Below, in pieces: positions 7,436-56,541 of a DNA stretch of 64,000 nt. Origin of the DNA: a virus; IMG/VR virus record IMGVR_UViG_3300042301_002266, positions 21,826-85,825 of that record; one strand, written 5' to 3'. Position numbers and translations under genes: made by a program. Position 1 is the stretch's first letter; each line of letters opens with the position of its first letter. Under the pieces are notes generated by a model that was not told the DNA's origin, made no database searches, and saw only the letters and a list, made by a program, of their open reading frames with translations.

Positions 7436-7971
7436 TGGCATCTAAATACTTTACATCAAGAGCTAAAGCTTCAAAGAAGATAACTCCTGCAGGATCAAGC
7501 AAGGTTTTTAATGATCCAAATGTTGATGAAAAATACAAAGAAGTTATTAATCAATTTCAAATGTCTCTTATAAAAAGCGGTGAAGGGTTATTAAATACAT
7601 TTACTGCTAGTACTGTAAACTCTATTCCAGAATCAATTATTCCAGCGAATGATAGTATAACTAGGCTAAATGATAGAACTATTCCACAGGCATTTGCAGC
7701 AGCAACTGCACAGGTTAGTATAACTAAAAACCAATACCTTGAAAAAATAAATATAATCACAAGGTCTATAGAATCATTGGTAAAGTTTGGTAAAAGTAAT
7801 AAGGCTTCCCTGATTGACTATTTTGGTAAGATAGATACAGCTTCGGGAACCTTTTACCCAACAATTATAAAATATGATGCTGAGGGTAATCCTGTGTACG
7901 ATATGAGGGTATCTATTGGCAATACCATAGGTGAAATAGAAGCTGAAGTTAGGACAGAACATGTATCCTAA
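7435..7971 (+). CDS. hypothetical tail-module protein
   Basis: TAATG-coupled to the upstream gene; about 178 aa. Confidence 0.6.
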   Translation: MASKYFTSRAKASKKITPAGSSKVFNDPNVDEKYKEVINQFQMSLIKSGEGLLNTFTASTVNSIPESIIPANDSITRLNDRTIPQAFAAATAQVSITKNQYLEKINIITRSIESLVKFGKSNKASLIDYFGKIDTASGTFYPTIIKYDAEGNPVYDMRVSIGNTIGEIEAEVRTEHVS

Positions 7972-7993
7972 TAAGGTGGTAAAATAGTATATT

Positions 7994-39786: not shown

Positions 39787-42700
39787 ATGGCTTCTAAGCA
39801 ATTTAAGGTACCAATTAATTTAGTTAATTTAACTTCTGATCCCTCAGGAGCAATAGAGGGTGACATTTACTGGAACTCTGCAGACAATAAACTTAGAATA
39901 TATTATGATTCAGCATGGAATGACGTATCCTCTGGTGGGGGTGGTGAAGGTGTAGCATCTGATAGCTTTAAAACTATATCAGTAACTGGTCAATCTAATG
40001 TTGTAGCAGACTCATCTACAGATACTTTAAGCCTTGTAGCAGGTACAAACGTATCTATTACAACAGATGCTATCAATGACTCCATAACCATTAACTCTAC
40101 TGCAGCACTTACATCTGTTGATTCTATTACATATCCAGATTATATTACATTTGATACCACCCCAGAAACCGTTCCAACTGCAACAGGCTCTATTTTTTGG
40201 GACGATGGAGACGGTCTTTTAGCAACAGTTTTAAATGCAAATGTAACTATTGGATTAGGACAAGAACAGGTAGCCTTAGTTAAAAATGCTACAGGTGCAT
40301 CTATTGCTAAGGGTAAAGTTGTATACATAAATGGTGCTGCTGGTCAAAGACCAACGATTGCACTATCTGATGCTGATACAGAAGCAACATCTTCTAAAAC
40401 ATTTGGCTTAACAGCAGAAGCGATTGCAGACGGTGCAGAAGGATTTGTAGCAACCTTTGGGGTTTTGCGTGGAGTTAATACTCTTGGATTAACTGCAGGT
40501 GCTGCTTTGTGGCTATCTTCAACCGCAGGTTCATATACAACAACGGTACCAGCAGAGCCAGCACACTCTGTATTTCTTGGATATGTAGTTAAGGCTCATC
40601 AAACAGCAGGTGAAATTTTTGTAAACATTCAAAATGGCTATGAGCTAACAGAACTTCATGGTGTAGTAATTGAAGCAGATGAAAGTTTAACAGACAATGA
40701 GGTTCTTGCTTATGATACAACATCAGGACTATGGAAAAATCAAACAGCAGTAGAAGCAGGACTTTTAGATACTTCTGCAACAGAACAAACAAAGGCTGGT
40801 AATTTAATCCTTAGTGGAGACCTTACCGTAGCAACTGACATTTTTTCAACAGGATTAAATCTTGTTATATCAAATGATGAAGTTGTTTCATTTAGTACAT
40901 TAAATAATAATGCAGGTATTTCAGAAGATACTGGATTTACTATTACAACAAATGGAATTGCAACTTCAAAAGTCTGGATATTTGACAATAGCGGAAATCT
41001 TACATTTCCAGATGCTTCAAATCAGACCACCGCATTCCTGGGAATGTCTGCTTATAGCACAACAAACCTATCTGAAGGAACCAATCTTTATTACACGGAC
41101 GAAAGAGCACAAGATGCAGTTGGAAATAATCTTGGAACTGGATTGTCCTACAACGACAGCACAGGAGCAATATCCAATTCTGGAGTCCTTGACCTAACTG
41201 GCACAGCAAATGAAATTGTTGTAAGTGCTTCAACTGGTAGTATTACAATTGGAATCCCAGACTCCCCAATTTTTGTTACCCCAACCATTGGTGTTGCAAC
41301 AGCAACATCTATAAATGGAACAACCATTCCATCCTCAAAAACTTTAGTTGTAACAACTGATATTGGTTCATCTGTTCAAGCATATAGTGCTGTTCTAGCA
41401 GGAATAAATACTCTTGGAGCAGGAACTGGTTTCTTAAAAAATACTGGAGGTACATGGTCATATGATAATTCAACATACGCACCTCTGGCTTCCCCAACAT
41501 TCACTGGTACAGTAACAATTCCTGCAGGTGCAGATATTTCTGGGTACCTAACAACATCTTCTGCTGCCTCTACATATGCAACAACAGCATCTCTGTCTAA
41601 CTACCAAACATTAGATGGAGATCTTAGTGCGATTGGAGCGATATCAAGTGGGGTAGGTTTATTAAAAAGAGTTGCTCAAGACACATGGACTATTGATACA
41701 AACACATATATAACAGCAAGCTCTCCAACCATAAATACGTCAATAATTTCAGGAACATCTACCTTTAACTTAATAAACACAACTGCAACTACAGTAAACT
41801 TTGCAGGTGCTGCAACAGCACTAACCATTGGATCAAATGATGCTGCAGCAATATTAACATTAAAGGCTCCAACAATTGTAGGAACAGCAACATCTCAGGA
41901 TATATTTAATACTGTTGCAACTACCGTTAATATTGCAGGTGCCACAACTACCCTTGTGATCGGTGGCACTCCAACAGGGGCTGTTTCAGCAACTTTATTT
42001 GGTAACACAACATCAAGTGGAAATACTAAAACTATAAACATAGGAACTGGCGGTGCATCAGGATCTGTTACTAACATAAACATTGGATCTTCAACATCAG
42101 GTGCAACTGGAACAGTAAGCGTTTATCCAACAACAACATTTAGTGGAGTTGTAAATGTGCCTTACCCAACAAGTGCTAACCATGCAACAACAAAATCTTA
42201 TGTTGATACTGTTGCTGCAGGAATTAACATAAAAACTCAAGTTGTTTATGTATCACAATCAAATGTAGCAGGTACATATACTGCAGGAACATCTGACTCC
42301 TCAGGAGGAACTGGAGTAGGTGCATATATTACATCTAATATAAGCGGAGCTTTAATTCTAGATGGTCCAGAAGTAGAAATAAATCAAAGAGTTCTTCTAA
42401 AAAATCAGACAGAAGAAAGACACAATGGTATATATATTGTAACTGATCCTGGAGATGGAGATAGTCCATACATTCTTACAAGAGCAGCAGATTTTAATGG
42501 TGAAACAACAACCAATGGTTTAATTAAACCAGGAGACTATATCTTTGTAACTTCTGGAACTATATCTGCTAATGATTCTTATGTAGTCTCACAAGTAGGA
42601 ACTTCAACTAGCCCAAATGGGGCAATAAAAATTGGAACAGATGATATTTTACTTGCACAGTACTCTGGTGTACCGTCAAATATCAGCACACTTGGATATG

Positions 42701-43218
42701 TAACAACTGGTACATGGGCTGCTTCTCCAATTGATAAAGACTTTATTGATGTTGAAATTGCTAGAACAGATGACCCAGTATTTACTGGTCATGTTACAGT
42801 TCCATCACCTACAGACGATACGGATGCAGCAAATAAAGAATATGTAGATGATTTAATATTTGCAAGTCTTCCATTCCTACCAGACATTATTCCACTAGAT
42901 GATATGAGATATGAATTTGATGGAATAAAGAGCAGATTTATGCCAAAGTTTGAGGGGCAAATGGTAAATATTTACAATCCCCTTAAACTATTGCTAACAA
43001 TTAATGGTATAATACAAACAGTGGACTTTCCAGAATATGTCTGGCAATCTATGCTACCAAGAGAAGGTTTCATGGTAGATTCAGATGGATACATTGCATA
43101 TTCAGAAGTTCCACCACCAGGATCTACATTTGATGCTAGAGTAATGTTAGGTCCAAACGTCAATACAAAAAAGAAAGGATATCCATTCAAAGCGGTGGAT
43201 ATATTATTAGGAGCATAA
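39787..43218 (+). CDS. long fibre-like virion structural protein
   Basis: 1143 aa, Thr/Gly/Ser-rich. GDIYWNS, TTNLSEGTNLYYTDERA, APLASPTFTG, ATTKSYVD and RVLLKNQT...NGIY modules typical of phage fibres. Confidence 0.8.
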   Translation: MASKQFKVPINLVNLTSDPSGAIEGDIYWNSADNKLRIYYDSAWNDVSSGGGGEGVASDSFKTISVTGQSNVVADSSTDTLSLVAGTNVSITTDAINDSITINSTAALTSVDSITYPDYITFDTTPETVPTATGSIFWDDGDGLLATVLNANVTIGLGQEQVALVKNATGASIAKGKVVYINGAAGQRPTIALSDADTEATSSKTFGLTAEAIADGAEGFVATFGVLRGVNTLGLTAGAALWLSSTAGSYTTTVPAEPAHSVFLGYVVKAHQTAGEIFVNIQNGYELTELHGVVIEADESLTDNEVLAYDTTSGLWKNQTAVEAGLLDTSATEQTKAGNLILSGDLTVATDIFSTGLNLVISNDEVVSFSTLNNNAGISEDTGFTITTNGIATSKVWIFDNSGNLTFPDASNQTTAFLGMSAYSTTNLSEGTNLYYTDERAQDAVGNNLGTGLSYNDSTGAISNSGVLDLTGTANEIVVSASTGSITIGIPDSPIFVTPTIGVATATSINGTTIPSSKTLVVTTDIGSSVQAYSAVLAGINTLGAGTGFLKNTGGTWSYDNSTYAPLASPTFTGTVTIPAGADISGYLTTSSAASTYATTASLSNYQTLDGDLSAIGAISSGVGLLKRVAQDTWTIDTNTYITASSPTINTSIISGTSTFNLINTTATTVNFAGAATALTIGSNDAAAILTLKAPTIVGTATSQDIFNTVATTVNIAGATTTLVIGGTPTGAVSATLFGNTTSSGNTKTINIGTGGASGSVTNINIGSSTSGATGTVSVYPTTTFSGVVNVPYPTSANHATTKSYVDTVAAGINIKTQVVYVSQSNVAGTYTAGTSDSSGGTGVGAYITSNISGALILDGPEVEINQRVLLKNQTEERHNGIYIVTDPGDGDSPYILTRAADFNGETTTNGLIKPGDYIFVTSGTISANDSYVVSQVGTSTSPNGAIKIGTDDILLAQYSGVPSNISTLGYVTTGTWAASPIDKDFIDVEIARTDDPVFTGHVTVPSPTDDTDAANKEYVDDLIFASLPFLPDIIPLDDMRYEFDGIKSRFMPKFEGQMVNIYNPLKLLLTINGIIQTVDFPEYVWQSMLPREGFMVDSDGYIAYSEVPPPGSTFDARVMLGPNVNTKKKGYPFKAVDILLGA

Positions 43219-43222
43219 AAAT

Positions 43223-46162
43223 ATGGCTAGAAAAATTTTATTTGAGACAGGTTATACATTTGACCCATCTACACGAACAGTAGTAATTCCAGATCACATT
43301 CCAAGAGAGCGTTTGCTTCTTATTACAAATGTAACAGATAACCAGGTTATCTATAACTTCTCTGACCCTAGCCTAAAGGCAACATCCTATATAGCACAAA
43401 TTGATTCTGACAACGTAGCTACTACTACTGTTGTTCTTAACTACAATACTTCTGCAATGGATTCCACAGACAAGCTTCAAATTACTGTAGACGAATACGC
43501 AGAAAGTTTCCAACCAGATGAGTCCTTTATGGATCCTGTTGGAAAAATGCGTGTATCCCTACCACAATCTCTTATTGACACAGACTTTGAATATGGAACT
43601 CAGCCTACAAAATGGGAAGTTCTTTCATTAACAAATAATAAGCCAAGTTGCTACTATGATGTTCAGACACCAGTTGCACAACCATCTGGTGGAGCTAGAA
43701 ACTTTGTATCTATTGCAGGAACAGGATCAACAAGAGTTGTAACAGTTGTTACAAGTATTGCACACGGACTCTCAGCTGGAAGTAGATTCTTTATTCAGGA
43801 TACTTTAGATGTAAATGCTGATGGATGGTATTTAGTAGCATCTGTATCAACAACAACTGTTCCTAACGATACATTTACTTACATTGCAAGAGCAAATGTT
43901 ACAAATGGATCGGTTCTTGACACTACAAAAACTTTTGCTTATAGGGCATTTAATTATTCAGGATCTACTATTCCTGTATCTGTTTCTTCAGGTGCAGCAT
44001 TCACCAACTCTGGAACTACAGTAACTTGTACAACAACAAATGCACACGGACTAGGTTGTGGAGACTTAATCTATGTAACTGGAACTACTGCAGCAACTTC
44101 TAATCCACCAAATGGTGCGTGGGAAGTTAAGACAACTCCAACTACAAATACATTTACTTTTGACGTAGTAACTGCCCCAGTAGGTGCGATCACTGCAGCA
44201 GCTACCTCTCTTACGGGAAGACCAGGAAGTCTTTCCATCCACCGCCCATTCGATGGCGGAGTCAGGTTCACTACTGGATCTTCAGCCCCTGGTACAAAAA
44301 TTGTTCGTCAAACTCGTAGATACTTCCGTTACCAATCAGGTAAAGGCATCCAGTTCTCAACTGGATCAATGCTAAAGCCTGTAATGGCAGTTGATTTAGT
44401 ATCATCCTCATCAACTACTGTAACAGTTAAAACAAGATACGAGCACTTCCTTGGAGTTGGAGCACAGGTAAAAGTTTCTGGTGCTGATCAAACAGCATAC
44501 AATGGAACATTTACTGTAACTGGAATTACAAGTGCTAAAGAGTTTACATATACTGCAAATGAAGTTCCTTCTGCAACACCTGCAACAGGATTTCCTATTG
44601 AAGTTGCCCCAACCTCATGGTTTGGTGGTCAAACAAGACTTGGTATGTTCGATGAGCAAAATGGTTTCTTCTTTGAATTTGACGGTCAAGATTTGTGGGC
44701 TGTAAGACGATCAAGTACAGATCAAATTTCAGGAATTATTGCTGCAACAAATGGATCTCCAACTATTACTGGAACAGATACAAGGTTTGCAGAACAACTT
44801 GATCCAGGTGATAAGATTGCTATTCGTGGAGCAACATATGTTGTTCAGTCAATTACAAGTAATACTCAAATGTTTGTTTTCCCAGAATATCGTGGACAAA
44901 GTATCACCTCTGGTGGTATTGTAAGCAAGGTTGTAGACTTTAAGGTAAATCAAGAAGACTGGAACATTGACACAATGGATGGAAATGGTCCGTCAGGAGT
45001 AAACTTAGACCTTGCCAAAATGCAGATGTTCTATATTGACTACGCCTGGTATGGTGCAGGAGCAATTAGATTTGGATTTAAGGATGAGCGTGGAGAAGTA
45101 ATTTACTGTCATAGAATGACACATGCAAATGTTAAAACTGAAGCATATATGAGAACTGGAAACTTACCTGCACGTTATGAAGCATCTTCAGATCCTGCAA
45201 TCACAAAGCTTTCGGCTACTCTTTCTAATGTTGCAACTTCAATGAGTGTTAGCTCAACTGTAGGATTCCCAACCACTGGAACACTTGTTGTTACCAAGTC
45301 TGGAAATACATCACAGGAAATTGAGTATATAACATATACAGGAAAGACTGCAACATCATTTACGGGTCTTACAAGAGCTATCACAAATACAATAGTTAAT
45401 CCAGTTTCAGGTGCAACTGGTGGTGGAAATGGAACAGCTCAATCGTTTACATATTCTGCTACAGCACCAGTAAAGGTTGAACTATATACAAGACAGTATG
45501 CAACAGGAACCAGTCACTGGGGATCATCGGTAATTATGGATGGTAGATATGATGATGATAAATCATTTATTTTCCAAGGTGGTATGTTAACTACAATTGC
45601 CATTCCTAGAAGCTCTTCAACAAGATATGCTTTGCTAAGTCTAAGACTTGCACCATCTGTAGATAATGGAGTCGTTGGAATTTTTGGAGAAAGAGAACTA
45701 ATTAACAGAATGCAGTTAACTCTAAGACAAATGGATATCCTTGCTCAGTCAACAGCGTCTTCATCAAATAACCCTGGAGTATTCCTTGTTGAGCTAATTC
45801 TTAATGGTAGAGTAAATACTACTGATGGAAATAACTGGACAAATGTTGGTGGATCTAGTTTATCCCAAATTGCATACCATGCATCAGAGACAACATTTAC
45901 AGGTGGAGAGCCAATCTTCTCATTCTTTGTAAGTACAGTAACTAATGAAGCATCTGTTATTCAACAAGACCTAAACCTTGTTAGAGATCTTGGAAATAGC
46001 ATTATGGGTGGTGGATTAGTTAATACTTCACCAACTACAGAAGCAAATGTTTATCCAGATGGACCAGATGTTGTTACCGTTGTTGTTAGAAATCTTAGCA
46101 GTGCAAGCGTAACCTCTGGAAGAATAAATGCTAGAATGTCATGGACGGAAGCACAAGCTTAA
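43223..46162 (+). CDS. virion structural protein with repeated beta modules
   Basis: YTFDP.T..V N-terminus, three T...HGL/HFL..G modules, RQTRRYFRYQSGKG, WYGAG.IRFG. Confidence 0.75.
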   Translation: MARKILFETGYTFDPSTRTVVIPDHIPRERLLLITNVTDNQVIYNFSDPSLKATSYIAQIDSDNVATTTVVLNYNTSAMDSTDKLQITVDEYAESFQPDESFMDPVGKMRVSLPQSLIDTDFEYGTQPTKWEVLSLTNNKPSCYYDVQTPVAQPSGGARNFVSIAGTGSTRVVTVVTSIAHGLSAGSRFFIQDTLDVNADGWYLVASVSTTTVPNDTFTYIARANVTNGSVLDTTKTFAYRAFNYSGSTIPVSVSSGAAFTNSGTTVTCTTTNAHGLGCGDLIYVTGTTAATSNPPNGAWEVKTTPTTNTFTFDVVTAPVGAITAAATSLTGRPGSLSIHRPFDGGVRFTTGSSAPGTKIVRQTRRYFRYQSGKGIQFSTGSMLKPVMAVDLVSSSSTTVTVKTRYEHFLGVGAQVKVSGADQTAYNGTFTVTGITSAKEFTYTANEVPSATPATGFPIEVAPTSWFGGQTRLGMFDEQNGFFFEFDGQDLWAVRRSSTDQISGIIAATNGSPTITGTDTRFAEQLDPGDKIAIRGATYVVQSITSNTQMFVFPEYRGQSITSGGIVSKVVDFKVNQEDWNIDTMDGNGPSGVNLDLAKMQMFYIDYAWYGAGAIRFGFKDERGEVIYCHRMTHANVKTEAYMRTGNLPARYEASSDPAITKLSATLSNVATSMSVSSTVGFPTTGTLVVTKSGNTSQEIEYITYTGKTATSFTGLTRAITNTIVNPVSGATGGGNGTAQSFTYSATAPVKVELYTRQYATGTSHWGSSVIMDGRYDDDKSFIFQGGMLTTIAIPRSSSTRYALLSLRLAPSVDNGVVGIFGERELINRMQLTLRQMDILAQSTASSSNNPGVFLVELILNGRVNTTDGNNWTNVGGSSLSQIAYHASETTFTGGEPIFSFFVSTVTNEASVIQQDLNLVRDLGNSIMGGGLVNTSPTTEANVYPDGPDVVTVVVRNLSSASVTSGRINARMSWTEAQA

Positions 46163-46175
46163 GGAGGCGTAATAA

Positions 46176-46742
46176 ATGGGGTTAAATAAACTAAACCACA
46201 TCTATACTACTGAACCTTTAACAGTAGAGTCTTTACTGGCTACTAATGATATAGGAATTTTAGACAACATCTTATTAGATGGTCAACTTGGTGATGCAAA
46301 TCAAGTAATTGCTATAAATTCTCAAGGAAATGGAATTGAATGGGCAACATTAGATGCTTTGCCTTCCCAGTCAGGAAACTCTGGAAAGTATCTTACTACT
46401 AATGGAACAGTAGCATCCTGGTCAGATCTTCCAACCGAAGTATTTAATGCAATTGGTACTGGCTCTGCACAAAATATTGATACCGCTATTGATGAAACCC
46501 TTAATGTAGGAGCAGAATATGCAGTTGCAGTTAAAACTGCAACGGGAAGATATGTCTCAAAAGTATTATTAATTTGTGATGGAACAAATGCTGTAAAAAT
46601 TACAGAGTATGGAATTTTAACAATTGGAACTGCCCCATCTGTTACAGTGGCAGCAGGAGGTAGTGCGTCAGCACCCAGATTATCTGTAAATGCTCCATTA
46701 AATGCAACAATAACATTAGTTAGAACATTGTTGGAGATCTAA
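46176..46742 (+). CDS. putative fibre adaptor / structural protein
   Basis: AGGAGG RBS; LPSQSGNSGKYLTTNGT fibre repeat; TEYG module. Confidence 0.65.
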   Translation: MGLNKLNHIYTTEPLTVESLLATNDIGILDNILLDGQLGDANQVIAINSQGNGIEWATLDALPSQSGNSGKYLTTNGTVASWSDLPTEVFNAIGTGSAQNIDTAIDETLNVGAEYAVAVKTATGRYVSKVLLICDGTNAVKITEYGILTIGTAPSVTVAAGGSASAPRLSVNAPLNATITLVRTLLEI

Positions 46743-47470
46743 TGGCTAATTTAACAATCAAAGAGGGTGTAACACTTTCTGGAATTGATTCACAAACCAG
46801 AGAGGTATTAAATTCATTTGCTCAAATAGGAATGGTATTACCATTTTTAGGTCCAGTTACTCAAACCTCATCATCAGGTGTGATAACAACAACAGCACCA
46901 CCTGGATGGCTACTATGCAATGGCAATGCTTTTTTAAATACAGTTTATCCTAGACTTGCAGCAGTTCTACAAACAACATTTTTACCAGACTTAAGATCAA
47001 AATACATTATTGGTACAACCAACAATACCTTTATTGGTGGTCCACTTGGAAACAATACACATACTCACACTTCTTCATATGGAACATCTACAGTAAGCAG
47101 TGTTGCAATTTCTTCACATGAATCAGCAGCTGGGACAGTATCATCTGGTGCTTCTGCAACAAATCATGCTCACGCAAATAATGTTGGGGCTAATATTGAT
47201 TATTTATCAGGACAAACATTTGTTAATTATGTGGCTGGAAATCAGGCTAATATTCATTTAAGAACACATCAGCATAACCTTAACGTAGCAACCAACTCTG
47301 GAGCAACAAATGATAATCATGCACATACAATTACCAGAGCAGCCTCTGGTATTACACAAGGAGCTGCTTCTACTCATACACATGCTCCAAGCTATTCAAG
47401 TACTATAAGTAGTCCATCAAGTGCAATACCTACAGTATATGTTAATTATATAATTAAGGCAGATAAATAA
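46742..47470 (+). CDS. tail-collar domain protein 1 with His-x-His repeats
   Basis: IGMVLPF...PPGWLLCNG...YPRL...LPDLR; about 5 HxH motifs; ends VNYIIKA. Confidence 0.85.
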   Translation: MANLTIKEGVTLSGIDSQTREVLNSFAQIGMVLPFLGPVTQTSSSGVITTTAPPGWLLCNGNAFLNTVYPRLAAVLQTTFLPDLRSKYIIGTTNNTFIGGPLGNNTHTHTSSYGTSTVSSVAISSHESAAGTVSSGASATNHAHANNVGANIDYLSGQTFVNYVAGNQANIHLRTHQHNLNVATNSGATNDNHAHTITRAASGITQGAASTHTHAPSYSSTISSPSSAIPTVYVNYIIKADK

Positions 47471-48189
47471 TGGCTAACTTTAAGCTATCTGCGGATAACA
47501 TTCTTGATAAAAACGGTAAAATACAAAATTTTCCTATAGGCTCAATAGTACCATTCTTTGGAACAACAGTTCCAGACGGGTGGCTTTTATGTAATGGTCA
47601 ATCCCTATCAACTACTGGAGATTATAAAGACTTATATGATGTAATTGGAACTACATACGGATCTGGATCGGGTACATTTTTAGTACCAAATATAAATCTT
47701 AGTTACCCAGCATCAAGCAATATTGACAATGCAACTAACTATCCAACAACTCATTCACATAGTGGAAACATGTCTCACGTTGCTACTTCTACTTCACATT
47801 CCATAACTCATAATCATACAGGAGGAACTGTTGGAATAGATGCAGCATCAGCAAGCCATAATCATGATGCTAATGCTAACAGTGTTAATGGTGGAGTAAC
47901 TCCAGCAGCAAATACAAATTCTGTTGCAAATAGAGCAATTAATCCAGGTCCAGCAAATAACTCACCACAGGCTGCCTGGGTAAGTCATACACACAACGCA
48001 GGAACTGGAACAACAAATGTTGGAAATAGTCCGTATAATCATAATCATAATGTTATGAACATAGCAGCTTCTTTTGATACTACTGCATCAGCAGCTGCCC
48101 ACGTTGTTGGTAGCAATACATTTACTCTTTCAACAGAATCACTATTTCGCCCTGAGGGGGTGATGGCGTACTTTATTATAAAGTATTAA
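47470..48189 (+). CDS. tail-collar domain protein 2 with His-x-His repeats
   Basis: PIGSIVPF...PDGWLLCNGQ...Y.DLY.VIGTTYG...F.VP; about 5 HxH motifs; ends FIIKY. Confidence 0.88.
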   Translation: MANFKLSADNILDKNGKIQNFPIGSIVPFFGTTVPDGWLLCNGQSLSTTGDYKDLYDVIGTTYGSGSGTFLVPNINLSYPASSNIDNATNYPTTHSHSGNMSHVATSTSHSITHNHTGGTVGIDAASASHNHDANANSVNGGVTPAANTNSVANRAINPGPANNSPQAAWVSHTHNAGTGTTNVGNSPYNHNHNVMNIAASFDTTASAAAHVVGSNTFTLSTESLFRPEGVMAYFIIKY

Positions 48190-48195
48190 ATAAAA

Positions 48196-48978
48196 ATGGC
48201 AGACTTTAAATCAGATAAAATAGATATCATACTAGATACATATCAAAACCTTTATGCAGGGATACCCACTGGAGCACTTGTACCCATAGCAGGTCCAGTC
48301 TCTTTATACTCAGCACCCTCTGTACAATACTACATAGATTTAGGTCTTCTTCCATGCAATGGTACTCAATGGAGCATATCAACATATCAAGAACTTTATA
48401 ATATAATTACACAAAATGGATCCGTTTTTCCATTTGGAACAAACACAAATGGATCAGGTGCTGCAGGATCTACACATTTTATTTTACCTAATATGTATAC
48501 TACAAAATATTTTCTATCTGGAACAGCCTCAAATATTTCAGTATCTAATACAGTTGGTCACTCACATACACATACTGTTACTACAAACCTATCAGCAAAT
48601 AATGCAGCATGGAATCATTATCATAATTTTTCTGCTAGTTCTAATGACGTTGCTATGAATTCTCATAACCATAACTATCCTGCAGGAAATGCTTCAACTG
48701 CTGGAAATGGTGGATCAATTATATCAAAAGCTGATGCATCTGGACCAACTGCATCATCTACAAGTCATAGTCATGGAGCACTTAATATGAATGCCTCAGC
48801 CTCAGAAAATCAAAATGCTGGAAACCACTCACATACTGGAAATACAGCTACCTCTAGTGAAGTAAGTGGTGGATCTCATTCACATATTGGACAAATAACA
48901 ACAACTCCAACATTCAATAGCAATTCTGTAGCTGTATACCCATCATTTGTAAATATGCTTTACTTTATTAAGTCTTAA
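48196..48978 (+). CDS. tail-collar domain protein 3 with His-x-His repeats
   Basis: PTGALVP...LLPCNG....TYQELY...F.LP; about 6 HxH motifs; ends YFIKS. Confidence 0.82.
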   Translation: MADFKSDKIDIILDTYQNLYAGIPTGALVPIAGPVSLYSAPSVQYYIDLGLLPCNGTQWSISTYQELYNIITQNGSVFPFGTNTNGSGAAGSTHFILPNMYTTKYFLSGTASNISVSNTVGHSHTHTVTTNLSANNAAWNHYHNFSASSNDVAMNSHNHNYPAGNASTAGNGGSIISKADASGPTASSTSHSHGALNMNASASENQNAGNHSHTGNTATSSEVSGGSHSHIGQITTTPTFNSNSVAVYPSFVNMLYFIKS

Positions 48979-49010
48979 TGATATAATACTTCTAATAGAA
49001 AGAATAGGAA

Positions 49011-49736
49011 ATGTTTAACAAAACAAACAAACAAGTAATAAAATTTAAAGCAATAGATCAAAACGTTTTTAATGTTTTTGAGCCACCTGTACCTGCAAAA
49101 AAAATGATACCAGAATGGTATAAAAGACAGGACAAGCTAACAACTCCAGGACGCTTTTCAATTGGAGAAAATGGTAATCCAAATCATACAATTAAAGCTT
49201 GTATGCCAATTTTTGATGTGATTACTGCTGGATATATTTTTAAGCTTTCTGCTGATATACATTTTATTAATGATCATAATGGAAGCATCACGTCCCAATG
49301 GAGTACAAACAACCTTAGACCTATTGAATCTCATCCAACCACCCAATATCAAGAGTATAAGGTTCCAGATGGCTATCATCATACTGCATTTAAGTTCATT
49401 CAACCTTGGGTAGTTGAAACACCACCAGGATACTCTTGTTTATTTATGCAACCAGCAATGAGAGACGATCTTCCATTTCAAATTATTCCAGCAATTGTAG
49501 ATACTGATAAGCATCCCATTAAAGTAAACTTCCCATTCTTTATTAAAGAGCATTTTGAGGGAACTCTTGAAATGGGTACACCAATTATGCAAATAATTCC
49601 ATTTAAAAGAGAAGAATGGAGCCATGAAGTACTTGAAGACTTAACTCAAGTTAATAATAAAAAGTGGCTTTCAGCAGAAGGTAAAATTGGAAATAGATAT
49701 AAATCATTCTTTAGAACAATAAAGAAGTGGGACTAA
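49011..49736 (+). CDS. DUF6065-related protein
   Basis: P.PA...IPEWYK, TIKACMP..D....GY, KF..PW...TPPGYS.LF..P, IVDTD, GTP..QIIPFKR. Confidence 0.65.
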   Translation: MFNKTNKQVIKFKAIDQNVFNVFEPPVPAKKMIPEWYKRQDKLTTPGRFSIGENGNPNHTIKACMPIFDVITAGYIFKLSADIHFINDHNGSITSQWSTNNLRPIESHPTTQYQEYKVPDGYHHTAFKFIQPWVVETPPGYSCLFMQPAMRDDLPFQIIPAIVDTDKHPIKVNFPFFIKEHFEGTLEMGTPIMQIIPFKREEWSHEVLEDLTQVNNKKWLSAEGKIGNRYKSFFRTIKKWD

Positions 49737-50245
49737 TAATGGGTATGACATATGAAGAAAAGTATTTTGAGTACGACAAATATATTAAACTTGTTGTAGA
49801 TCATGAACATGGACATAAGACTATTCCAGAAATTGAAAACATAGACTATAGCCTTGCCAAAGAAGAACTTTCTGAAAATGAATTTAAAATTTTTATTATC
49901 TATTCATGTTTTAAAAAAGCAATGAATGGAGACGGTGCAGAAATTATTGACATCGCTGAGGACACATTAAAAGAACTTAAAAATGCAAGTCTAGACTTGC
50001 CACTATCTGCAGAATTTATAAATTCTTTATTTAGTTTTGATTCAGTATATAAAGTAATGTATGACCTTCTGCAATTGGCTGTTGACGGTGAATATAGAGG
50101 GATTAAAAAATCAAAAGACTACATTGATGGAGTAATAGATTCTATTATTGTTCTTAAGAAATTTCAAAGACACAACGGTTTTGGAGATTTTGAATGGACA
50201 GTAAGATGGAATAATGCTATTGATTACAACCCAAAAGATACCTAA
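49727..50245 (+). CDS. hypothetical helical protein
   Basis: Coupled between the two DUF6065-like genes; start may be the ATG at 49739. Confidence 0.6.
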   Translation: MGLIMGMTYEEKYFEYDKYIKLVVDHEHGHKTIPEIENIDYSLAKEELSENEFKIFIIYSCFKKAMNGDGAEIIDIAEDTLKELKNASLDLPLSAEFINSLFSFDSVYKVMYDLLQLAVDGEYRGIKKSKDYIDGVIDSIIVLKKFQRHNGFGDFEWTVRWNNAIDYNPKDT

Positions 50246-50982
50246 TGTCAAAAAATTTTATAGAAAAAATAAATTTGTATGATACAAATATTTACGACAT
50301 TGTTCCATCTAAAGTAAAAAAAACGTTATTAGATCAAGAAGATAATAACTCATACAAATGTAAACCACTCAATGTAGCAAATACTTACGGATGGGACGTG
50401 CTATGTCCTTTTACTTTTACAGCACATTGGAACGGTGGTAATAGGCAGCAAGATATAACTATTGAATGTTATGATGAATCTATTTGTGTTGACTGCTCTC
50501 CAATGGTATCCCACTTTGGATTTGGTACTTTAACATTTAATATGGATTTTATTATCAGAACAAATGAAAATATTTCTTTGTATGTAAGGTCTCCAATTAA
50601 TACTTATATTGAAGGAGTCCAGCCACTAGATGCAATAGTTGAAACAGATTGGCTTCCATATACCTTTACATATAATTTTAAGTTTCCAAAGCCTGGTAAG
50701 GCAAGTTTTGTAAAAGGAGATCCACTTTATACCTTTTTCCCTATTGAAAGAGGTTTTATAGAAAGCTTTGATTTAAAATCATCAAACATTAATATGTATC
50801 CAGAATTACAAAATGAATTTGAACATTATAATGATACTAGAATTATATCAAATTCTAAAGACGTAGACAATAAACCAAACAATGTCAGAGGATTCTATAC
50901 TCGTGGAGAAAATTCAATGGGAAAAAAATATAATATAAAAAATCATGTAAAAACTACAATATTAGGGTATTTTAAAAAATAA
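50245..50982 (+). CDS. DUF6065-family protein
   Basis: YKC.PL..AN..GW...CP, SHFG.G.LTF, P.N, VETDWLPYTFT.N, GDP...FFP. Confidence 0.75.
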   Translation: MSKNFIEKINLYDTNIYDIVPSKVKKTLLDQEDNNSYKCKPLNVANTYGWDVLCPFTFTAHWNGGNRQQDITIECYDESICVDCSPMVSHFGFGTLTFNMDFIIRTNENISLYVRSPINTYIEGVQPLDAIVETDWLPYTFTYNFKFPKPGKASFVKGDPLYTFFPIERGFIESFDLKSSNINMYPELQNEFEHYNDTRIISNSKDVDNKPNNVRGFYTRGENSMGKKYNIKNHVKTTILGYFKK

Positions 50983-51047
50983 AAATACTTTACTATATTG
51001 TGTAAATTTGATATAATAGAGTCCTAATTAAATTAAGGAAATAAATA

Positions 51048-51413
51048 ATGAAAATTTTAGTATATGGTACAGATACCTTTGATGACTATTCAACATTTAT
51101 GCGTGGTCTTATAGTTGCTATTGATGAAAATGCAAAGGGATCAGACGGTAAGATTGAGGTTTTTACCGCAGGTCCTAGAAAGATCAATAGTTATACTGCT
51201 GAGTTTATTAATAAGACTGAAGGATTCTTTAGACAAAAGAAAATTAGAACAAGATTTCGTAGAATACCTCGCTCAGAAGCTATTGAAAACTTTGAGTCCT
51301 ATGGGTTTGATCATGTATTATCATTTAACAATAAAAAAGATCCCAAATTCTTTGATGTTTTGATGGATAAGGCTGAAATTCTTAACATTAATTCGTCTTA
51401 CTACAAATATTAG
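51048..51413 (+). CDS. YspA/SLOG-like protein
   Basis: MKILVYG...FDDY..F N-terminus. Confidence 0.5.
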   Translation: MKILVYGTDTFDDYSTFMRGLIVAIDENAKGSDGKIEVFTAGPRKINSYTAEFINKTEGFFRQKKIRTRFRRIPRSEAIENFESYGFDHVLSFNNKKDPKFFDVLMDKAEILNINSSYYKY

Positions 51414-51427
51414 GATATAATATACTT

Positions 51428-51790
51428 ATGGCTAATCTAGTTTTTACACCAGCAGAGGTAAATGTTTCCATGACTAAAGGAGATTCTCTTAGCATGAATA
51501 TTACCCTACAAAATGATGACGGCACTGCCTATGGATTACCTGCTGGAACATTAACTTTTACATCTTCAATTAAAAAGGTTAGTGATAGTACGTCTGCAGG
51601 AACATTTACCTGCACACAGGTTGGTACAACCAATGTTATTACGATGTATATGAGCCCTACAATAAGTGCTGCCCTAGTTCCAGGTACACAATATAAGTAT
51701 GATCTACAAATGGCTGCAGGTAATGACTCAACAGGAACAAAGAAAACTTTTATTAAAGGAACTATTGATGTGGAAAGTGATGTTACATAA
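51428..51790 (+). CDS. BppU-like Ig-fold structural protein
   Basis: KGDS.....TL...YKYDLQ...T..KGTI.V..DVT. Confidence 0.6.
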   Translation: MANLVFTPAEVNVSMTKGDSLSMNITLQNDDGTAYGLPAGTLTFTSSIKKVSDSTSAGTFTCTQVGTTNVITMYMSPTISAALVPGTQYKYDLQMAAGNDSTGTKKTFIKGTIDVESDVT

Positions 51791-52776
51791 TGTCTAATGC
51801 AAATGTTGTTGTTAATGTAGATGATGGTATTGTTACCAGTGCGTCTAGTATTTTAGCCCCTAAGGTAAACCCAGTATTTCAAGGTACTGTATTCCTTGAT
51901 GAGGATGCAGTTCTTGTTTTTGAAGGTAGTACGCCAAATAATTTTGAAACAACCTTAACTGCTGTAGATCCTACTGCAGATAGAACAATTAACCTACCAA
52001 ATCTTAGTGGAACACTTGTTGTTTCAGAGTCTGCAACATTTACTTCAAATGCTACTTTTAATGGAAATATTATTTTTGAAGGTGCAGTACCAGATAATTT
52101 TGAAACAACACTTACCGTTGCAGAACCTACGGAAGACAGAGTAATTACACTTCCGAATGCCACAACCACAGTAGTTGGAACAGATGTTGTACAAACTCTT
52201 ACAAACAAAACTTTAACAAGCCCAACAATTTCAACACCAACAGTTTCTGGACTATACCTATCAGACTCTTCAATTACTTTTGAAGGTGCAAGTGCAAATG
52301 AACATGAAACAATCCTTACAGTAGCTGATCCAACTTCTGCTGATGTTACAATTACTCTTCCAGCAACTACAGGAACTGTTGCTTTAACAAGCCAGCTTGC
52401 TTCCTATCAGCCACTTGATGCAGACTTAACAGCCATTGGTGCACTTTCTGGAACGTCAGGACTGCTAAAAAAGACTGCAGCAAATACATATGAGTTAGAT
52501 ACCACTACATATGTAAGTGCCTCTGATGTAAGATCAGGAACAACAACAGTAACCCTATCCTCTGGATATGGAACGGCAACTGTAAATGGTTTCCTTTCAA
52601 CTCAAAATGTTGTTGCAAGCTACAAGCCAGCAGCAGGTGCTTATACTTCGTCTTCAAACACTTACTCTATTGCAGTAGAAACTCCAACAGATACGACAAC
52701 TAGAAAGTTTCACGTTAAAAGTTCTAGTGGATCAGAGTCTGGATCAATAGTTTTAAACTATCTTGCAATAGTATAG
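51790..52776 (+). CDS. short fibre-like structural protein
   Basis: Three FEG...(N/E).FETTLT..DPT.DR.I.LP repeats, QTLTNKTLTSP, QPLDADLTAI. Confidence 0.75.
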   Translation: MSNANVVVNVDDGIVTSASSILAPKVNPVFQGTVFLDEDAVLVFEGSTPNNFETTLTAVDPTADRTINLPNLSGTLVVSESATFTSNATFNGNIIFEGAVPDNFETTLTVAEPTEDRVITLPNATTTVVGTDVVQTLTNKTLTSPTISTPTVSGLYLSDSSITFEGASANEHETILTVADPTSADVTITLPATTGTVALTSQLASYQPLDADLTAIGALSGTSGLLKKTAANTYELDTTTYVSASDVRSGTTTVTLSSGYGTATVNGFLSTQNVVASYKPAAGAYTSSSNTYSIAVETPTDTTTRKFHVKSSSGSESGSIVLNYLAIV

Positions 52777-52840: not shown

Positions 52841-53071
52841 ATGTTAGTTACAAGTTATGAGTACGCCCATCAAATTGTGGACTCAAATAAGAATCTTCTA
52901 TGGGATGGATGGAATATTTTAGAAGCTAAAGAAAGCTTGGGTGCAGAATATAAGCCTGACGGTAAACTTATCAACGGTAAATGGCACTATGTAAAGTCAT
53001 TTAATTTAACAGAAAATGGTTGGGAGGTTCCAACAAAGTATGTTAGATCACGAATGGATAGTAAAAGCTAA
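52841..53071 (+). CDS. hypothetical protein
   Basis: First gene after the promoter; L.WDGW motif. Confidence 0.65.
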   Translation: MLVTSYEYAHQIVDSNKNLLWDGWNILEAKESLGAEYKPDGKLINGKWHYVKSFNLTENGWEVPTKYVRSRMDSKS

Positions 53072-53312
53072 GTGTAGGTCTATGGATCGTGAGTTATTTT
53101 TTGATAAGTACGAAGAAGATCAAGACTTAGCTAAGGTTGTGGATAACATTTGTCTAACCTGTCCAGTAATATCTGAATGCTTTACTCATGGAACAACCAA
53201 TGAGGAATGGGGAGTATGGGGTGGAGTTTATCTTGTGGACGGAGAAATTAGTCCATCCAAAAACTTCCACAAGACACCTGAAATTTGGACAGAGATTCTA
53301 GGAGCAGTTTAA
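53040..53312 (+). CDS. whiB: WhiB-family Fe-S transcription factor
   Basis: W...AKC...D.ELFF...C..CPV..EC...GVWGG. Confidence 0.92.
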   Translation: MLDHEWIVKAKCRSMDRELFFDKYEEDQDLAKVVDNICLTCPVISECFTHGTTNEEWGVWGGVYLVDGEISPSKNFHKTPEIWTEILGAV

Positions 53313-53576
53313 GTGCCTAAGTTTACTAAAGAAATGTCAATGGCTGTACATAGATTAAAGCCACCATATAAAGGATTAATCATTGACTTTGTGGAACATA
53401 AAGATTATGTAGGTATCCGTATTTATGAGAATCAAATCATGGCTATGAATGAAACTCAAAAAGTGAGTATAATGGAGTATCTGCAATTACTTAGAATAAC
53501 TATTGAGTCATTCGGTGTAAAAGCAAATTTTGACGGAGCAAAAGGAGACCCTCCAAGAGGTACATATGTTTCATAG
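53313..53576 (+). CDS. hypothetical protein
   Basis: GTG start adjacent to the whiB stop. Confidence 0.6.
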   Translation: MPKFTKEMSMAVHRLKPPYKGLIIDFVEHKDYVGIRIYENQIMAMNETQKVSIMEYLQLLRITIESFGVKANFDGAKGDPPRGTYVS

Positions 53577-53757
53577 ATTAGTTTGGATGATTGAAGAGCA
53601 GGTAACTGCTGAATTAGTATCTTTTGGTGCTCACTCATCCCGTGTTAAGTATAATCTTAATGGAATTATATTTGACGAAATAGTTATGAACGAAGACTTT
53701 ATTCCTTATGATGAACTTGGAATCGCATACGAAACATTTGGAGACGATGATGCGTAA
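53566..53757 (+). CDS. hypothetical protein
   Basis: GAGG RBS; coupled. Confidence 0.55.
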   Translation: MFHRLVWMIEEQVTAELVSFGAHSSRVKYNLNGIIFDEIVMNEDFIPYDELGIAYETFGDDDA

Positions 53758-54490
53758 AGCTGTTGTCTTTACATCATATAATAGATCAGATTATCTTAAA
53801 GAAACATTAAGGTCCTGGAGAGATGTTGCAAATAAAAATGGATATGATTTCTTTTTTAAATTAGAACCATCTCCCATGCAAAAAAATATGGAAAAGAAAA
53901 TGATTAACTTTTTAAGTGAGCAAAAATTATATGGAGATGTAATAAATAATCCAGAAAGATGCGGTGTTCTCCTTAATCCCTGGGAAGGTCTCAACACTAT
54001 GTTTGAACAAGGATATGACTTTGTAGTATTAGCAGAAGATGACATTGAGGTATCAGATGACATATTACATTTCTTTGACGATCTATCTGAAAGACACCTA
54101 AGAGATGAAGAACTATTAGCAATTTGTGCAAGTAATTTATGGTCAATAGAGGTAGATAATGCTGACCCTACAACATATTTTAAGCGTTCTTATTTCTCAC
54201 CATTGATTTGGGGAACTTGGAAAGATAGATGGAGTAGTTATTTAAGAGATACATGGGATAAAGATTACTCATCTGGAGGTTCAGAAAACTCTGGATGGGA
54301 TTGGAATATTGCATTAAGAGTTATTCCAGAAAATAATTTAAAGTGTATTTTCCCTGAGAAATCAAGGTCAAGACATATAGGAAAAAAGGGTGTTCATATG
54401 AGAGAAGAAGACTATCACACAAGTGTTGCCCAAAGTTTTTCTTATCATAATGATTATTTAGGATATAAGGAGATACCAAGTGCTTGGTAA
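53747..54490 (+). CDS. GT-A glycosyltransferase
   Basis: SYNR..YL..TL, LAEDDI, WGTWKDRW, WDW, SRSRHIG..G.H. Confidence 0.85.
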   Translation: MMRKAVVFTSYNRSDYLKETLRSWRDVANKNGYDFFFKLEPSPMQKNMEKKMINFLSEQKLYGDVINNPERCGVLLNPWEGLNTMFEQGYDFVVLAEDDIEVSDDILHFFDDLSERHLRDEELLAICASNLWSIEVDNADPTTYFKRSYFSPLIWGTWKDRWSSYLRDTWDKDYSSGGSENSGWDWNIALRVIPENNLKCIFPEKSRSRHIGKKGVHMREEDYHTSVAQSFSYHNDYLGYKEIPSAW

Positions 54491-55148
54491 AGATGTATTA
54501 GTAATTGTTCCAACAAGAGGGAGACCAGATGCTTCAGTAGAATTTCATAAAGAGTTTTTACAAAAGTCAATGATCAGTGATTTAGTGTTTGCAATTGATG
54601 AAGACGATGCAGATAGCTACCCACGCATTGACGGTGTATTTTATGAAGTAAACCCTAGAATGGGTATGAATGGTACGTTAAATTATGTTGCAAATAAGTA
54701 TGCTAATAGTTATAAGTATATTGTATTTATGGGAGATGACCACAGGGTCAGAACCTTTGGATGGGATTTAGTTATGGCTGAAAAGATTGGTAGTCTTGGG
54801 GTTGCTTATGGTAATGATTTAATTCAGGGACAGGCATTACCAACAGCAGTAATGATGTCCTCTAAGATTATTAAGGCTATTGGATACATGGCTCCACCCA
54901 AGCAAAAACATATGTACTTGGATAACTTCTGGCTAGATCTTGGTACAAGATTAAATGCTATCCATTATCTAGAAGATGTAATTATTGAACACTTACATTT
55001 CAGCGTAGGAAAATCTGATATAGATTCAAGCTATCAAGAAACAAATGACTCTGCTATATACAATGCAGATAAAGTGGCTTATGATGAATACCTTTTAACA
55101 CAGATGGATATTGATTTAGATAAGATATTAAGATGCGTAAACGACTAA
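54480..55148 (+). CDS. GT-A (family 2-like) glycosyltransferase
   Basis: VIVPTRGRP, IDEDD, MGDDH, H.YLDN, IEHLH. Confidence 0.85.
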   Translation: MLGKDVLVIVPTRGRPDASVEFHKEFLQKSMISDLVFAIDEDDADSYPRIDGVFYEVNPRMGMNGTLNYVANKYANSYKYIVFMGDDHRVRTFGWDLVMAEKIGSLGVAYGNDLIQGQALPTAVMMSSKIIKAIGYMAPPKQKHMYLDNFWLDLGTRLNAIHYLEDVIIEHLHFSVGKSDIDSSYQETNDSAIYNADKVAYDEYLLTQMDIDLDKILRCVND

Positions 55149-55678
55149 GAAAAAAGTATACTGACAAAGAACTAAAACTAGTATATGCAAAACCTCACGA
55201 ACACCATCATTGGGAAGACCATAAGATTCGTGTTGAATATACCATAGAGGTCGCCAAACAAATACAGGGAGTAGAAAGTGTAGCAGACCTATCTGCAGGT
55301 GATGCCACAATTATAAACGCCTTAAATGTATCTAACAAGTTTATCGGTGATTTTGCACCTAAGTATGAGTTTGAAGGTGCTATTGAAGAAACAATAGATT
55401 TAATACCTAAGGTAGATTTGTTTATTTTATCAGAGACCTTAGAGCATATTGATGATCCTGAATATGTCTTAAAAAAGATTAGAGAAAAGACCAGCAAGCT
55501 TTTGCTTACAACCCCAGAGGGTAAGTTTGATGATACCAACCCAGAGCACTACTGGGCATGGGATAATGAAGCAATAAGAAAACTTTTAATTTCCACTGGA
55601 TTTATACCAGTAAGGTATGATAAACTTGAACTCGCTCAAAAATATTACTACGACTATCAGATATGGGTATGTGAATGA
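55133..55678 (+). CDS. SAM-dependent methyltransferase-like protein
   Basis: VADLSAGD, SETLEHIDDP, LLTTP, HYWAWD; similar to 34108..34683. Confidence 0.8.
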   Translation: MRKRLRKKYTDKELKLVYAKPHEHHHWEDHKIRVEYTIEVAKQIQGVESVADLSAGDATIINALNVSNKFIGDFAPKYEFEGAIEETIDLIPKVDLFILSETLEHIDDPEYVLKKIREKTSKLLLTTPEGKFDDTNPEHYWAWDNEAIRKLLISTGFIPVRYDKLELAQKYYYDYQIWVCE

Positions 55679-56541
55679 GAATTTTAATTACGGGTCATAA
55701 AGGCTTTGTTGGTGGATACTTTATGCGTAAGTATAAAGACCACGATATTGTAGGTATTGATATCAAAGAAGGCAATGATTGCCGTGACTTCTTTAAAGAG
55801 GATGACTCATACTTTGATATGGTAATTCACCTTGCTGCAATTGTTGGGGGTAGAGTAACTATTGAAGGTAATCCCCTTTCTGTGGCAACAGACCTATCAA
55901 TTGATGCAGAGATGTTTAACTGGGCTATGCGTACAAGACCAGGCAGGGTTGTTTATTTTAGTTCTTCTGCTGCATATCCAACCAAGTTCCAAACTGGTGC
56001 AAATCCATTAAAGCTTTCAGAACAAATGCTAGACTTATATGCTGTATCAAACCCAGACTTAACTTATGGATGGGCAAAGCTTACAGGAGAATATCTTGCT
56101 AGGTTTGCACAAGAGGCAGGTATTCGCACACATATATTCCGTCCATTCTCAGGGTACGGTACAGACCAAGACCTTGACTATCCATTCCCATCTTATATTA
56201 CAAGAGCATTAAGACAAGATAACCCATTTGATATTTGGGGTGATGGACATCAGGTAAGAGACTTTATCCATATGCAAGACATTGTAGATGCAGTAGATAA
56301 AGCTATTGAATTAGATATTCCTGGTCCAGTTAATCTTGGTTCAGGAGAAGCAACATCATTTAGAGACTTAGCTAAACTTGTTTGTAAATTACAGGGCTAC
56401 TCTCCAGAATATAATTTTATTGAAACAGCACCAGTAGGTGTTACATATCGTGTTTCAGATCCAAGAAAAATGTTAAGTTTTTATAAGCCAAAGATTAGCC
56501 TTACTCAAGGAATTGTTAAGGCACTAGAAGGAAATATTTAA
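55675..56541 (+). CDS. NAD-dependent sugar epimerase/dehydratase
   Basis: ITGHKGFVG, HLAA, SSSAAY, YGWAK, RDFIH. Confidence 0.92.
   Translation: MRILITGHKGFVGGYFMRKYKDHDIVGIDIKEGNDCRDFFKEDDSYFDMVIHLAAIVGGRVTIEGNPLSVATDLSIDAEMFNWAMRTRPGRVVYFSSSAAYPTKFQTGANPLKLSEQMLDLYAVSNPDLTYGWAKLTGEYLARFAQEAGIRTHIFRPFSGYGTDQDLDYPFPSYITRALRQDNPFDIWGDGHQVRDFIHMQDIVDAVDKAIELDIPGPVNLGSGEATSFRDLAKLVCKLQGYSPEYNFIETAPVGVTYRVSDPRKMLSFYKPKISLTQGIVKALEGNI

Follow-up and report, generated by a model that had tools for sequence, protein, structure and literature searches.

We analyzed the block of genes at positions 46176-50982 of a window of 64,000 nucleotides (nt), which corresponds to bases 21826-85825 of a contig of 85.8 kilobases (kb) from a freshwater phage in IMG/VR (record IMGVR_UViG_3300042301_002266, estimated completeness about 80%). 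Three consecutive genes in this block, colA, colB and colC, encode short collar proteins with repeated His-x-His (HxH) motifs. They are preceded by g188, a gene for a protein of 188 amino acids (aa), and followed by the genes E1, HEL and E2 (Table 1). An initial annotation of this DNA, made from the sequence alone, had regarded the collar proteins as a fibre tip composed of either one heterotrimer or three interchangeable tips, and had assumed that the products of E1 and E2 modify this tip or load it with metal. Based on the present data, we lean on balance towards a reading in which the block encodes the distal part of a second fibre, with an adaptor, a heterotrimeric needle and a maturation unit made up of E1, HEL and E2.

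The collar triplet and its proposed adaptor

The junctions of g188 with colA and of colA with colB, as read from the sequence, are TAATG overlaps, and colB and colC are separated by a spacer of 6 nt. The tandem arrangement and coupling of three collar genes had been described in the same way by the initial annotation; the first 567 bases of the region that it delimited (from 46176) are a fourth gene, g188, and not part of a collar protein. The Pfam Collar domain (PF07484, cut-off 24 bits) was matched by colA (2.3e-08, 34.3 bits) and by colB (4.9e-17, 62.1 bits), and colC scored below the cut-off when taken alone (3.9e-04, 20.7 bits) and 25.2 bits when taken with its neighbours in frame. HxH motifs occur five times in colA (residues 107, 142, 176, 193 and 212), five times in colB (95, 114, 130, 173 and 191) and seven times in colC (122/124, 141, 157, 191, 211 and 228). 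Such counts were reached in 5000 residue shuffles at frequencies of 0.0002, 0.0002 and 0, respectively. The three proteins end in YIIKADK, FIIKY and YFIKS, and both the spaced HxH motifs, at numbers far above those of residue shuffles, and the (Y/F)(I/F)IK ends that had been noted initially are found in every chain. All chains of 17 triplet cassettes have one HxH template in common, which consists of three levels in steps of 16-20 residues, a gap of 32-43 residues, and three more levels.

A profile of the position-3 collar proteins had a sole match in the PDB, namely the receptor-binding tip of T4 gp37 (2XGF, E 1.9e-5), and the alignment follows the histidine-rich needle with the HxH columns matched. 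Judged from the Collar matches, the HxH enrichment and the match to 2XGF, the triplet is a needle tip of the gp37 type, and the earlier fibre-tip reading stands. In both cases the collar domain precedes a needle in which HxH motifs are repeated. The tip encoded here differs from that of gp37 in being a free-standing protein of about 240-260 aa that is encoded three times, and not the C-terminus of one long chain, and in having six HxH levels as compared to seven. A fourth collar and HxH paralogue forms the tip of a 1571-aa fibre of the same phage. The C-terminal 230 residues of this fibre are 25-30% identical to colA, colB and colC, the HxH columns being common to them and invariant, and the fibre ends in IIYA.

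In alignments, residues 105-188 of g188 match the C-terminal extremity of the proteins that precede the triplet in other loci (L180, L093, L183, L185, L007, L008 and others). These shaft proteins span 155-1379 aa and all end in a g188-type segment of about 80 aa. Because the C-terminal residues of g188 are found at the end of such varied upstream proteins, g188 can be regarded as a minimal shaft, the conserved end of which likely serves the tip as a socket, in analogy to gp36 and gp37; the needle tip would then be received by the C-terminal domain of g188. The order of a small shaft piece, a tip and an accessory gene directly downstream resembles that of T4 genes 36-37-38.

The spacer of 32 nt between colC and E1 contains TGATATAAT at 48979-48987, within a TTTACT-17-TATAAT sequence, and the full TTTACT-17-TGATATAAT was found again at 50989-51017. 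The window holds seven copies of the 9-mer TGATATAAT compared to 1.5 expected, a number that was reached in 0 of 100 shuffles, and the five copies on the plus strand (14742, 24994, 48979, 51009 and 57590) are all located shortly upstream of gene starts. No terminator-like site was found between colC and E1. This element is probably a recurring phage promoter, in agreement with the new promoter that had been predicted before E1. The junction of E1 with HEL is a gap of 2 nt if HEL starts at the ATG at 49739, and HEL and E2 overlap by TAATG. The three genes thus form a translationally coupled unit with its own predicted promoter.

Table 1. Positions and properties of the features discussed in the text
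Feature	Position in window	Strand	Description
Tip of 1571-aa fibre (C-terminal)	13785-14483	+	Fourth collar and HxH paralogue, fused to a long shaft; Collar match
g188	46176-46742	+	188 aa; predicted short shaft or adaptor protein; TAATG-coupled to colA
colA	46742-47470	+	242 aa; position-1 collar and HxH needle protein
colB	47470-48189	+	239 aa; position-2 collar and HxH needle protein
colC	48196-48978	+	260 aa; position-3 collar and HxH needle protein
Promoter-like site	48959-48987	+	TTTACT-17-(TG)ATATAAT between colC and E1; putative
E1	49011-49736	+	phrog_7084 at 3e-46; constant partner of the triplet
HEL	49739-50245	+	Acidic, helical; 168 aa from ATG 49739, or 172 aa from GTG 49727
E2	50245-50982	+	DUF6065 (PF19541) at 1.2e-55, 189 bits (cut-off 26.6)
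WhiB gene	53016-53312		PF02467, 3e-13; heads operon at 53016-57572

Composition of the needle tip

A search of IMG/VR with the position-3 collar profile alone yielded 21 loci; in each of them the number of short collar genes is exactly three, and their order is the same. Positional orthology and gene order are kept across about a dozen cassettes at 24-40% identity. In a tree of the collar proteins of seven cassettes, the position-1 proteins formed a clade (support 94/92), as did the position-3 proteins (support 95/90), and colB grouped with the position-2 proteins of L007 and L094 (support 89/94). The clustering of position labels was equalled in 0 of 200 shuffles. The positional clades and the clustering of labels indicate that the triplication is old and that its order has been maintained.

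A comparable triplet is known from the virophage DSLV2, in which three consecutive collar proteins resemble gp37, score better as a heterotrimer in AlphaFold3, co-purify via one tagged subunit and are seen as 16-nm fibres (PMC12724248, J Virol 2025). For the DSLV2 heterotrimer, the three genes sufficed for assembly in E. coli, and the same study reported the same positional conservation for this collar set and noted phage relatives (PMC12724248). Both triplets consist of three consecutive gp37-like collar genes on the same strand, of about 200-250 aa, with position-specific clades, the DSLV2 proteins being QIG59353-5. In contrast to the DSLV2 set, the triplet in the window belongs to a tailed phage and is accompanied by an upstream adaptor gene and a conserved downstream unit of E1, HEL and E2, none of which is described for DSLV2. 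With the fixed gene order, the positional clades and the precedent of DSLV2, a heterotrimer is the better-supported option, and colA, colB and colC probably form one trimer of three different chains, which would co-assemble 1:1:1 into a single metal-stapled needle. Of the two possibilities left by the initial annotation the heterotrimer is accordingly favoured, but the idea, although plausible, is no longer new since the publication on DSLV2.

Each chain would start with the collar, pass through three HxH levels on the way up to a variable apex and through three more on the way down, and finish as a C-terminal strand that leads back to the collar. The gp37 chain climbs the needle, makes a head and returns, its last residues rejoining the collar. 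The gp37 collar is formed by residues 811-860 plus 1016-1026 (PMC12724248). On the model of gp37, the central gap in the HxH template would be the receptor-binding apex and the (Y/F)(I/F)IK end the returning collar strand. The sites at which the collar proteins of the window differ from those of its closest relative are dispersed over the chains and not focused at the apex.

Alternatively, the three genes could encode three separate homotrimeric tips, each docking on g188, which as alternative receptor-binding proteins would broaden or switch the host range. If the tips were interchangeable, variation in copy number and order would be expected, whereas the copy number is always three, the order is fixed and the proteins fall into positional clades. 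Moreover, the tight translational coupling suggests equimolar synthesis, and an experimental precedent for a heterotrimer exists (DSLV2, PMC12724248). We therefore consider three homotrimers possible but rather unlikely, even though gp37, gp12 and the tip of the 1571-aa fibre are single-gene forms of the same fold and presumably homotrimers, and though colA, colB and colC differ in HxH count and length. The collar proteins are also the fastest-evolving genes of the block, with 73-86% identity as compared to 91-95% for their neighbours in L002, as would be expected of receptor binders. The difference in HxH counts between the chains (5, 5 and 7) also weighs against the heterotrimer. The number of HxH levels is too invariant for covariation between the chains to be informative, six being retained in every cassette; the sole signal was a weakly negative correlation of position 1 with position 2 (rho −0.56).

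Families and fold of E1 and E2

E2 is a canonical full-length DUF6065 protein and a distant paralogue of E1, as judged from its Pfam match and from profile comparison. The profiles of E1 and E2 aligned over 134 columns with an hhalign probability of 95.7% (E 1e-8), with the motifs C-x-P, G(Y/W) and V(D/E)TD in register. No Pfam match was found for E1, and in the nearest Atlas clusters 12-23% of the members carry PF19541, which is a weak overlap. Given the hhalign alignment and a weak cross-match of phrog_7084, E1 is a sister family of DUF6065 and not a member of it. The initial annotation had reported two divergent DUF6065-like proteins with these motifs in common around a helical open reading frame (ORF); the relationship is borne out by the profiles, and the family name applies to E2, E1 being only a distant homologue. 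The E1 family comprises 1305 clusters and more than 594 IMG/VR loci, and its invariant residues include Cys64, His108, Asp164-Thr165-Asp166, Gln194 and Arg200. A search for fused, longer forms of E1 retrieved none, which is weak evidence. Pfam DUF6065 is mainly alphaproteobacterial, and unlike the bacterial members the phage branch is multi-copy and located within fibre regions.

No match was found for HEL in Pfam, PHROG, NCBIfam or Atlas. With only 14 relatives among 1.84 billion proteins, HEL fits a cassette-specific helper, a lineage-restricted companion of E1. None of E1, HEL and E2 matched any tail-fibre assembly family in Pfam, PHROG or NCBIfam. The closest relatives of the window, L002 and L003, contain an extra ORF of 225 aa between E2 and the next gene (8731-9408 in each), which has no Pfam or NCBIfam match; the window has only a 66-nt spacer at this place (50983-51047).

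E1 was modelled from 54 sequences (predicted local distance difference test score, pLDDT, 93.6) and E2 from 53 sequences (pLDDT 83.4), and both models were used in an all-against-representatives structural search (VIA). The E1 model was most similar to the dUTPase of P. falciparum (Z 9.4, 124 residues of 3T60 aligned), the next unrelated match having a Z of 2.7, and the E2 model to the dUTPase of equine infectious anaemia virus (Z 10.3, 119 of the 120 residues of 1DUN aligned), the next unrelated match having a Z of 4.0. For both models, matches 1-22 all belong to one superfamily, which comprises trimeric dUTPases, dCTP deaminases and, from herpesviruses, the proteins pp71 and ORF10 that derive from dUTPases. 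The models superpose on whole chains of this superfamily (119-133 residues, Z 8-10), and the non-enzymatic relatives recovered are pp71 of human cytomegalovirus and ORF10 of murine gammaherpesvirus 68. Foldseek, the comparison that the initial annotation had proposed, agreed with a dUTPase-like fold at weak E-values in searches of PDB and BFVD. According to the models, we thus class E1 and E2 as proteins of the dUTPase/dCTP-deaminase (beta-clip/jelly-roll) fold, presumably trimeric, and not as dUTPases. A cupin or 2-oxoglutarate (2OG)-oxygenase-like fold was also considered and dropped, as cupin matches had Z values of only 2.2-2.8, far below those of the dUTPases.

At the sequence level, neither E1 nor E2 nor any other protein of the phage record matched the dUTPase family PF00692. 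Profiles of E1, of E2 and of both merged gave no signal (hhalign probability <1%) against 5 and then 34 canonical dUTPases, and the E1 profile yielded only chance matches to PDB sequences (titin, E ~0.3). By eye, we have the impression that the segments PPGYS...R, VDTD and GTPIMQ of E1 are laid out with a spacing similar to that of dUTPase motifs II, III and IV; no glycine-rich C-terminal motif V is visible in E1. Compared to dUTPases, E1 and E2 have about 100 extra residues, no Pfam dUTPase match, no glycine-rich C-terminal arm and different invariants (Cys-x-Pro and (D/E)-T-D), and their context is that of fibre genes and not of nucleotide metabolism. The assignment of a dUTPase-like fold to DUF6065 and phrog_7084 appears to be undescribed.

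Linkage to fibre genes and possible roles of E1 and E2

E1 is present within about 1.1 kb downstream of the triplet in all 20 loci for which downstream DNA is available, the loci having been retrieved with the collar profile and not with E1; these 20 loci correspond to roughly a dozen distinct cassettes, and many are from related phages, so that they do not represent 20 independent events. In most triplet cassettes HEL directly follows E1, and what comes after E1 is usually HEL, a second paralogue of E1 or E2, or HEL together with such a paralogue. E2 is absent from L007, and in other cassettes a second E1 copy is found in its place. The flanks of the L007 cassette (120-4413) are 87-99% identical to those of the window (46176-50982) and the cassette between them has diverged, with identities of 46% for g188 over the C-terminal 100 residues, 29-35% for the collar proteins, 59% for E1 and 46% for HEL. 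Because a diverged block lies between such similar flanks, the stretch from g188 to HEL looks like one exchangeable cassette, which suggests modular exchange of a fibre-tip unit. The window also encodes an LtfC-like beta-sandwich protein (51428-51790; its match to PF23926 is slightly below the cut-off) and a 328-aa fibre protein (51790-52776, phrog_38058), both of which are 87-98% conserved even where the triplet cassette is swapped. A second conserved downstream set, absent from the window, was observed in L008 (10604-12810), L094 (~6300-8765), L176, L180 and L183; it consists of an ORF of about 125 aa, an ORF of about 194 aa and a collar protein of 400-470 aa, which would represent an additional fibre of the collar type.

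The wider E1 family is often found in tandem E1-E1(-E2) arrays. In podophage-like loci E1 is located beside genes that match tail-fibre and fibre-assembly PHROGs, and ORFs of fibre clusters make up 20-24% at a distance of two to four genes from E1 as compared to 6% at a distance of at least six genes. Haloarchaeal myoviruses account for 49 of the 52 matches in the phage collection. Their E1 homologues, at about 30% identity, retain the motifs CMP, VD-x-D and GTPI-x-Q-x-IPFKR and are located at the outer edge of the fibre region, as exemplified by HrrSp1_185 of Serpecor1 (L200) and gp40 of HSTV-2 (L172). The region beside HrrSp1_185 has been linked to host range (PMC7230728). The bacterial DUF6065 genes behave differently from E1: a collar neighbour was found in 0 of 80 loci, as was no recurrent neighbour, and the Collar domain is absent from five bacterial DUF6065 genomes, all of which keep a normal dut gene. 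Apparent neighbour clusters of the bacterial genes turned out to be antisense ORFs and generic ABC ATPases. The link between the triplet and its downstream genes that the initial annotation had drawn is consequently supported for E1 and not supported for DUF6065 proper.

In 72 of the 75 E1 loci without a triplet there is no ORF with at least four HxH motifs, and the haloviral fibre genes have no HxH motifs. The E1 family is, for this reason, not tied to HxH fibres. This bears on the role assumed initially, namely that E1 and E2 metal-load or covalently modify the HxH needle specifically. E1 strictly adjoins HxH triplets in the cassettes, and its invariant Cys, His and Asp could bind metal; in aquatic phages it clusters with 2OG-Fe(II) oxygenases, PF11397-type glycosyltransferases and carbamoyltransferases, and a glycosyltransferase/epimerase operon is found shortly downstream in the window. 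Against this stand the E1 loci and haloviral fibres that lack HxH motifs and the fold of E1 and E2, which matches no known metallochaperone or protein-modifying enzyme. To our knowledge, T4 gp37 is not known to need a metal-loading or modifying factor, and the DSLV2 trimer assembled without one (PMC12724248). A needle-specific modifying or metal-loading role, which has no direct support, thus seems very unlikely. Dedicated metal loading of the needle is likewise very unlikely in view of the HxH-less E1 loci, the collar-less bacterial DUF6065 genes and the helper-free DSLV2 trimer.

It is fairly likely that E1 and E2 have a role in fibre maturation of one kind or another. Fibre chaperones and adhesins are commonly encoded directly after the receptor-binding genes of phages. 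E1 occupies the same position directly downstream of receptor-binding genes (20/20) as the chaperones gp38/gp57A of T4 and Tfa of lambda; no sequence similarity to a described chaperone family was found, and in contrast to gp38 the product of the downstream gene is dUTPase-like in its fold. E1 and E2, which keep a conserved polar pocket, would thus be fibre-maturation factors in the position of gp38 and not enzymes of the nucleotide pool; they would assist assembly, as a chaperone or scaffold, or act enzymatically with a nucleotide-like ligand. Non-catalytic use of the dUTPase fold, for the binding of proteins, has arisen repeatedly in viruses, and a scaffold use of this kind is suggested by the presence of pp71 and ORF10 among the structural matches. 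An enzyme is suggested by the gene neighbours of E1 in aquatic phages and by the operon 2.7 kb downstream in the window. In ten of the aquatic-phage loci (L112, L114, L116, L124, L142, L148, L149, L154, L167 and L169) tandem E1 genes belong to a fixed cluster whose other members encode a PF11397-type (GlcNAc) glycosyltransferase, two 2OG-Fe(II) oxygenases and a carbamoyltransferase of the NodU/CmcH type, and which looks like a glycan or protein modification cluster.

Several points weigh against a maturation role. Besides the relatedness of many triplet loci, the bacterial DUF6065 genes stand alone, and the DSLV2 trimer forms without helpers in E. coli (PMC12724248), so that an E1-like helper is not generally required. 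The chaperone form in particular is disfavoured by the invariant residues of E1, which look more like a pocket or active site than a chaperone surface. In addition, thymidylate synthase or ribonucleotide reductase is encoded next to some homologues, and an auxiliary-gene island of a cyanophage contains another. This raises the alternative that E1 and E2 have no relation to the fibre and are enzymes directed at nucleotides, either divergent ones of the dUTPase/dCTP-deaminase type in nucleotide metabolism or DNA modification, or hydrolases of a defence signal, that merely travel with the variable fibre cassette. The sole fold found for them is that of dUTPases and dCTP deaminases, the phage record has no canonical dUTPase, the conserved E1 segments resemble the layout of dUTPase motifs II-IV by eye, HSTV-2 gp40 follows thymidylate synthase and DNA polymerase, the Serpecor1 homologue is near ribonucleotide reductase, and a cyanophage homologue is in an auxiliary-gene region. 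However, profile similarity to 34 real dUTPases is absent and no motif V is visible, the linkage to collar triplets is perfect across diverged cassettes, and the E1 family is embedded in the fibre clusters of other phage types. In both halovirus lineages the fibre end is the constant neighbour whereas the nucleotide-metabolism neighbour differs, and the bacteria that carry DUF6065 retain their own dut. We thus regard a fibre-unrelated enzyme as unlikely, and a maturation role as the preferred reading.

The wider context of the block was also inspected. The window starts with genes for a tape-measure protein, a minor tail protein and the 1571-aa fibre, followed by a DnaB-like helicase, a large DNA polymerase (phrog_405) and a large terminase. 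Fibre-like genes form a second block at 39787-52776. The operon at 53016-57572 contains, beyond its WhiB gene, genes for a GNT-I-family glycosyltransferase, an NAD-dependent epimerase and a protein of the IMPDH/GMP-reductase family. The WhiB gene suggests an actinobacterial host. No isolated phage in the collection has DNA-level similarity to the region (megablast), and a tblastn search of isolated phages with E2 was likewise empty. In this setting, the phage would be an actinophage-like siphovirus with a second fibre system, the distal part of which would be encoded at positions 46176-50982 in the layout of T4 genes 36-37-38.

The triplet is a phage member of the tripartite collar kind described in 2025, and its constant partners of dUTPase-like fold appear to be undescribed. 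In the literature searched we found no mention of DUF6065 and no publication that joins 'dUTPase-like' with 'tail fiber'. The claim of an undescribed system made initially is therefore weakened for the triplet and retained for E1 and E2. As a more speculative proposal, which we put forward tentatively and consider doubtful, phrog_7084 and DUF6065 may be an unrecognised branch of the dUTPase fold that was redeployed as a dedicated tail-fibre maturation factor, be it a scaffold or an enzyme. A scaffold would be three-fold-symmetric and set the register of the fibre chains, which here are three different ones, an enzyme would have a nucleotide-like substrate on the fibre, and the branch would be common to bacterial sipho- and podoviruses and haloarchaeal myoviruses.

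Receptor-binding fibre tips determine the host range of phages. If the heterotrimer is real, a tip of three chains would have an asymmetric apex and hence offer a wider range of receptor-binding surfaces than a homotrimer, and the heterotrimer of the virophage type would extend to tailed phages. A large family of unknown function, including DUF6065, gains a dUTPase-like fold and a consistent setting in fibre modules, which makes its function directly testable. The E1/E2 family may add a new class of fibre helpers, on which laboratory expression of such fibres would depend.

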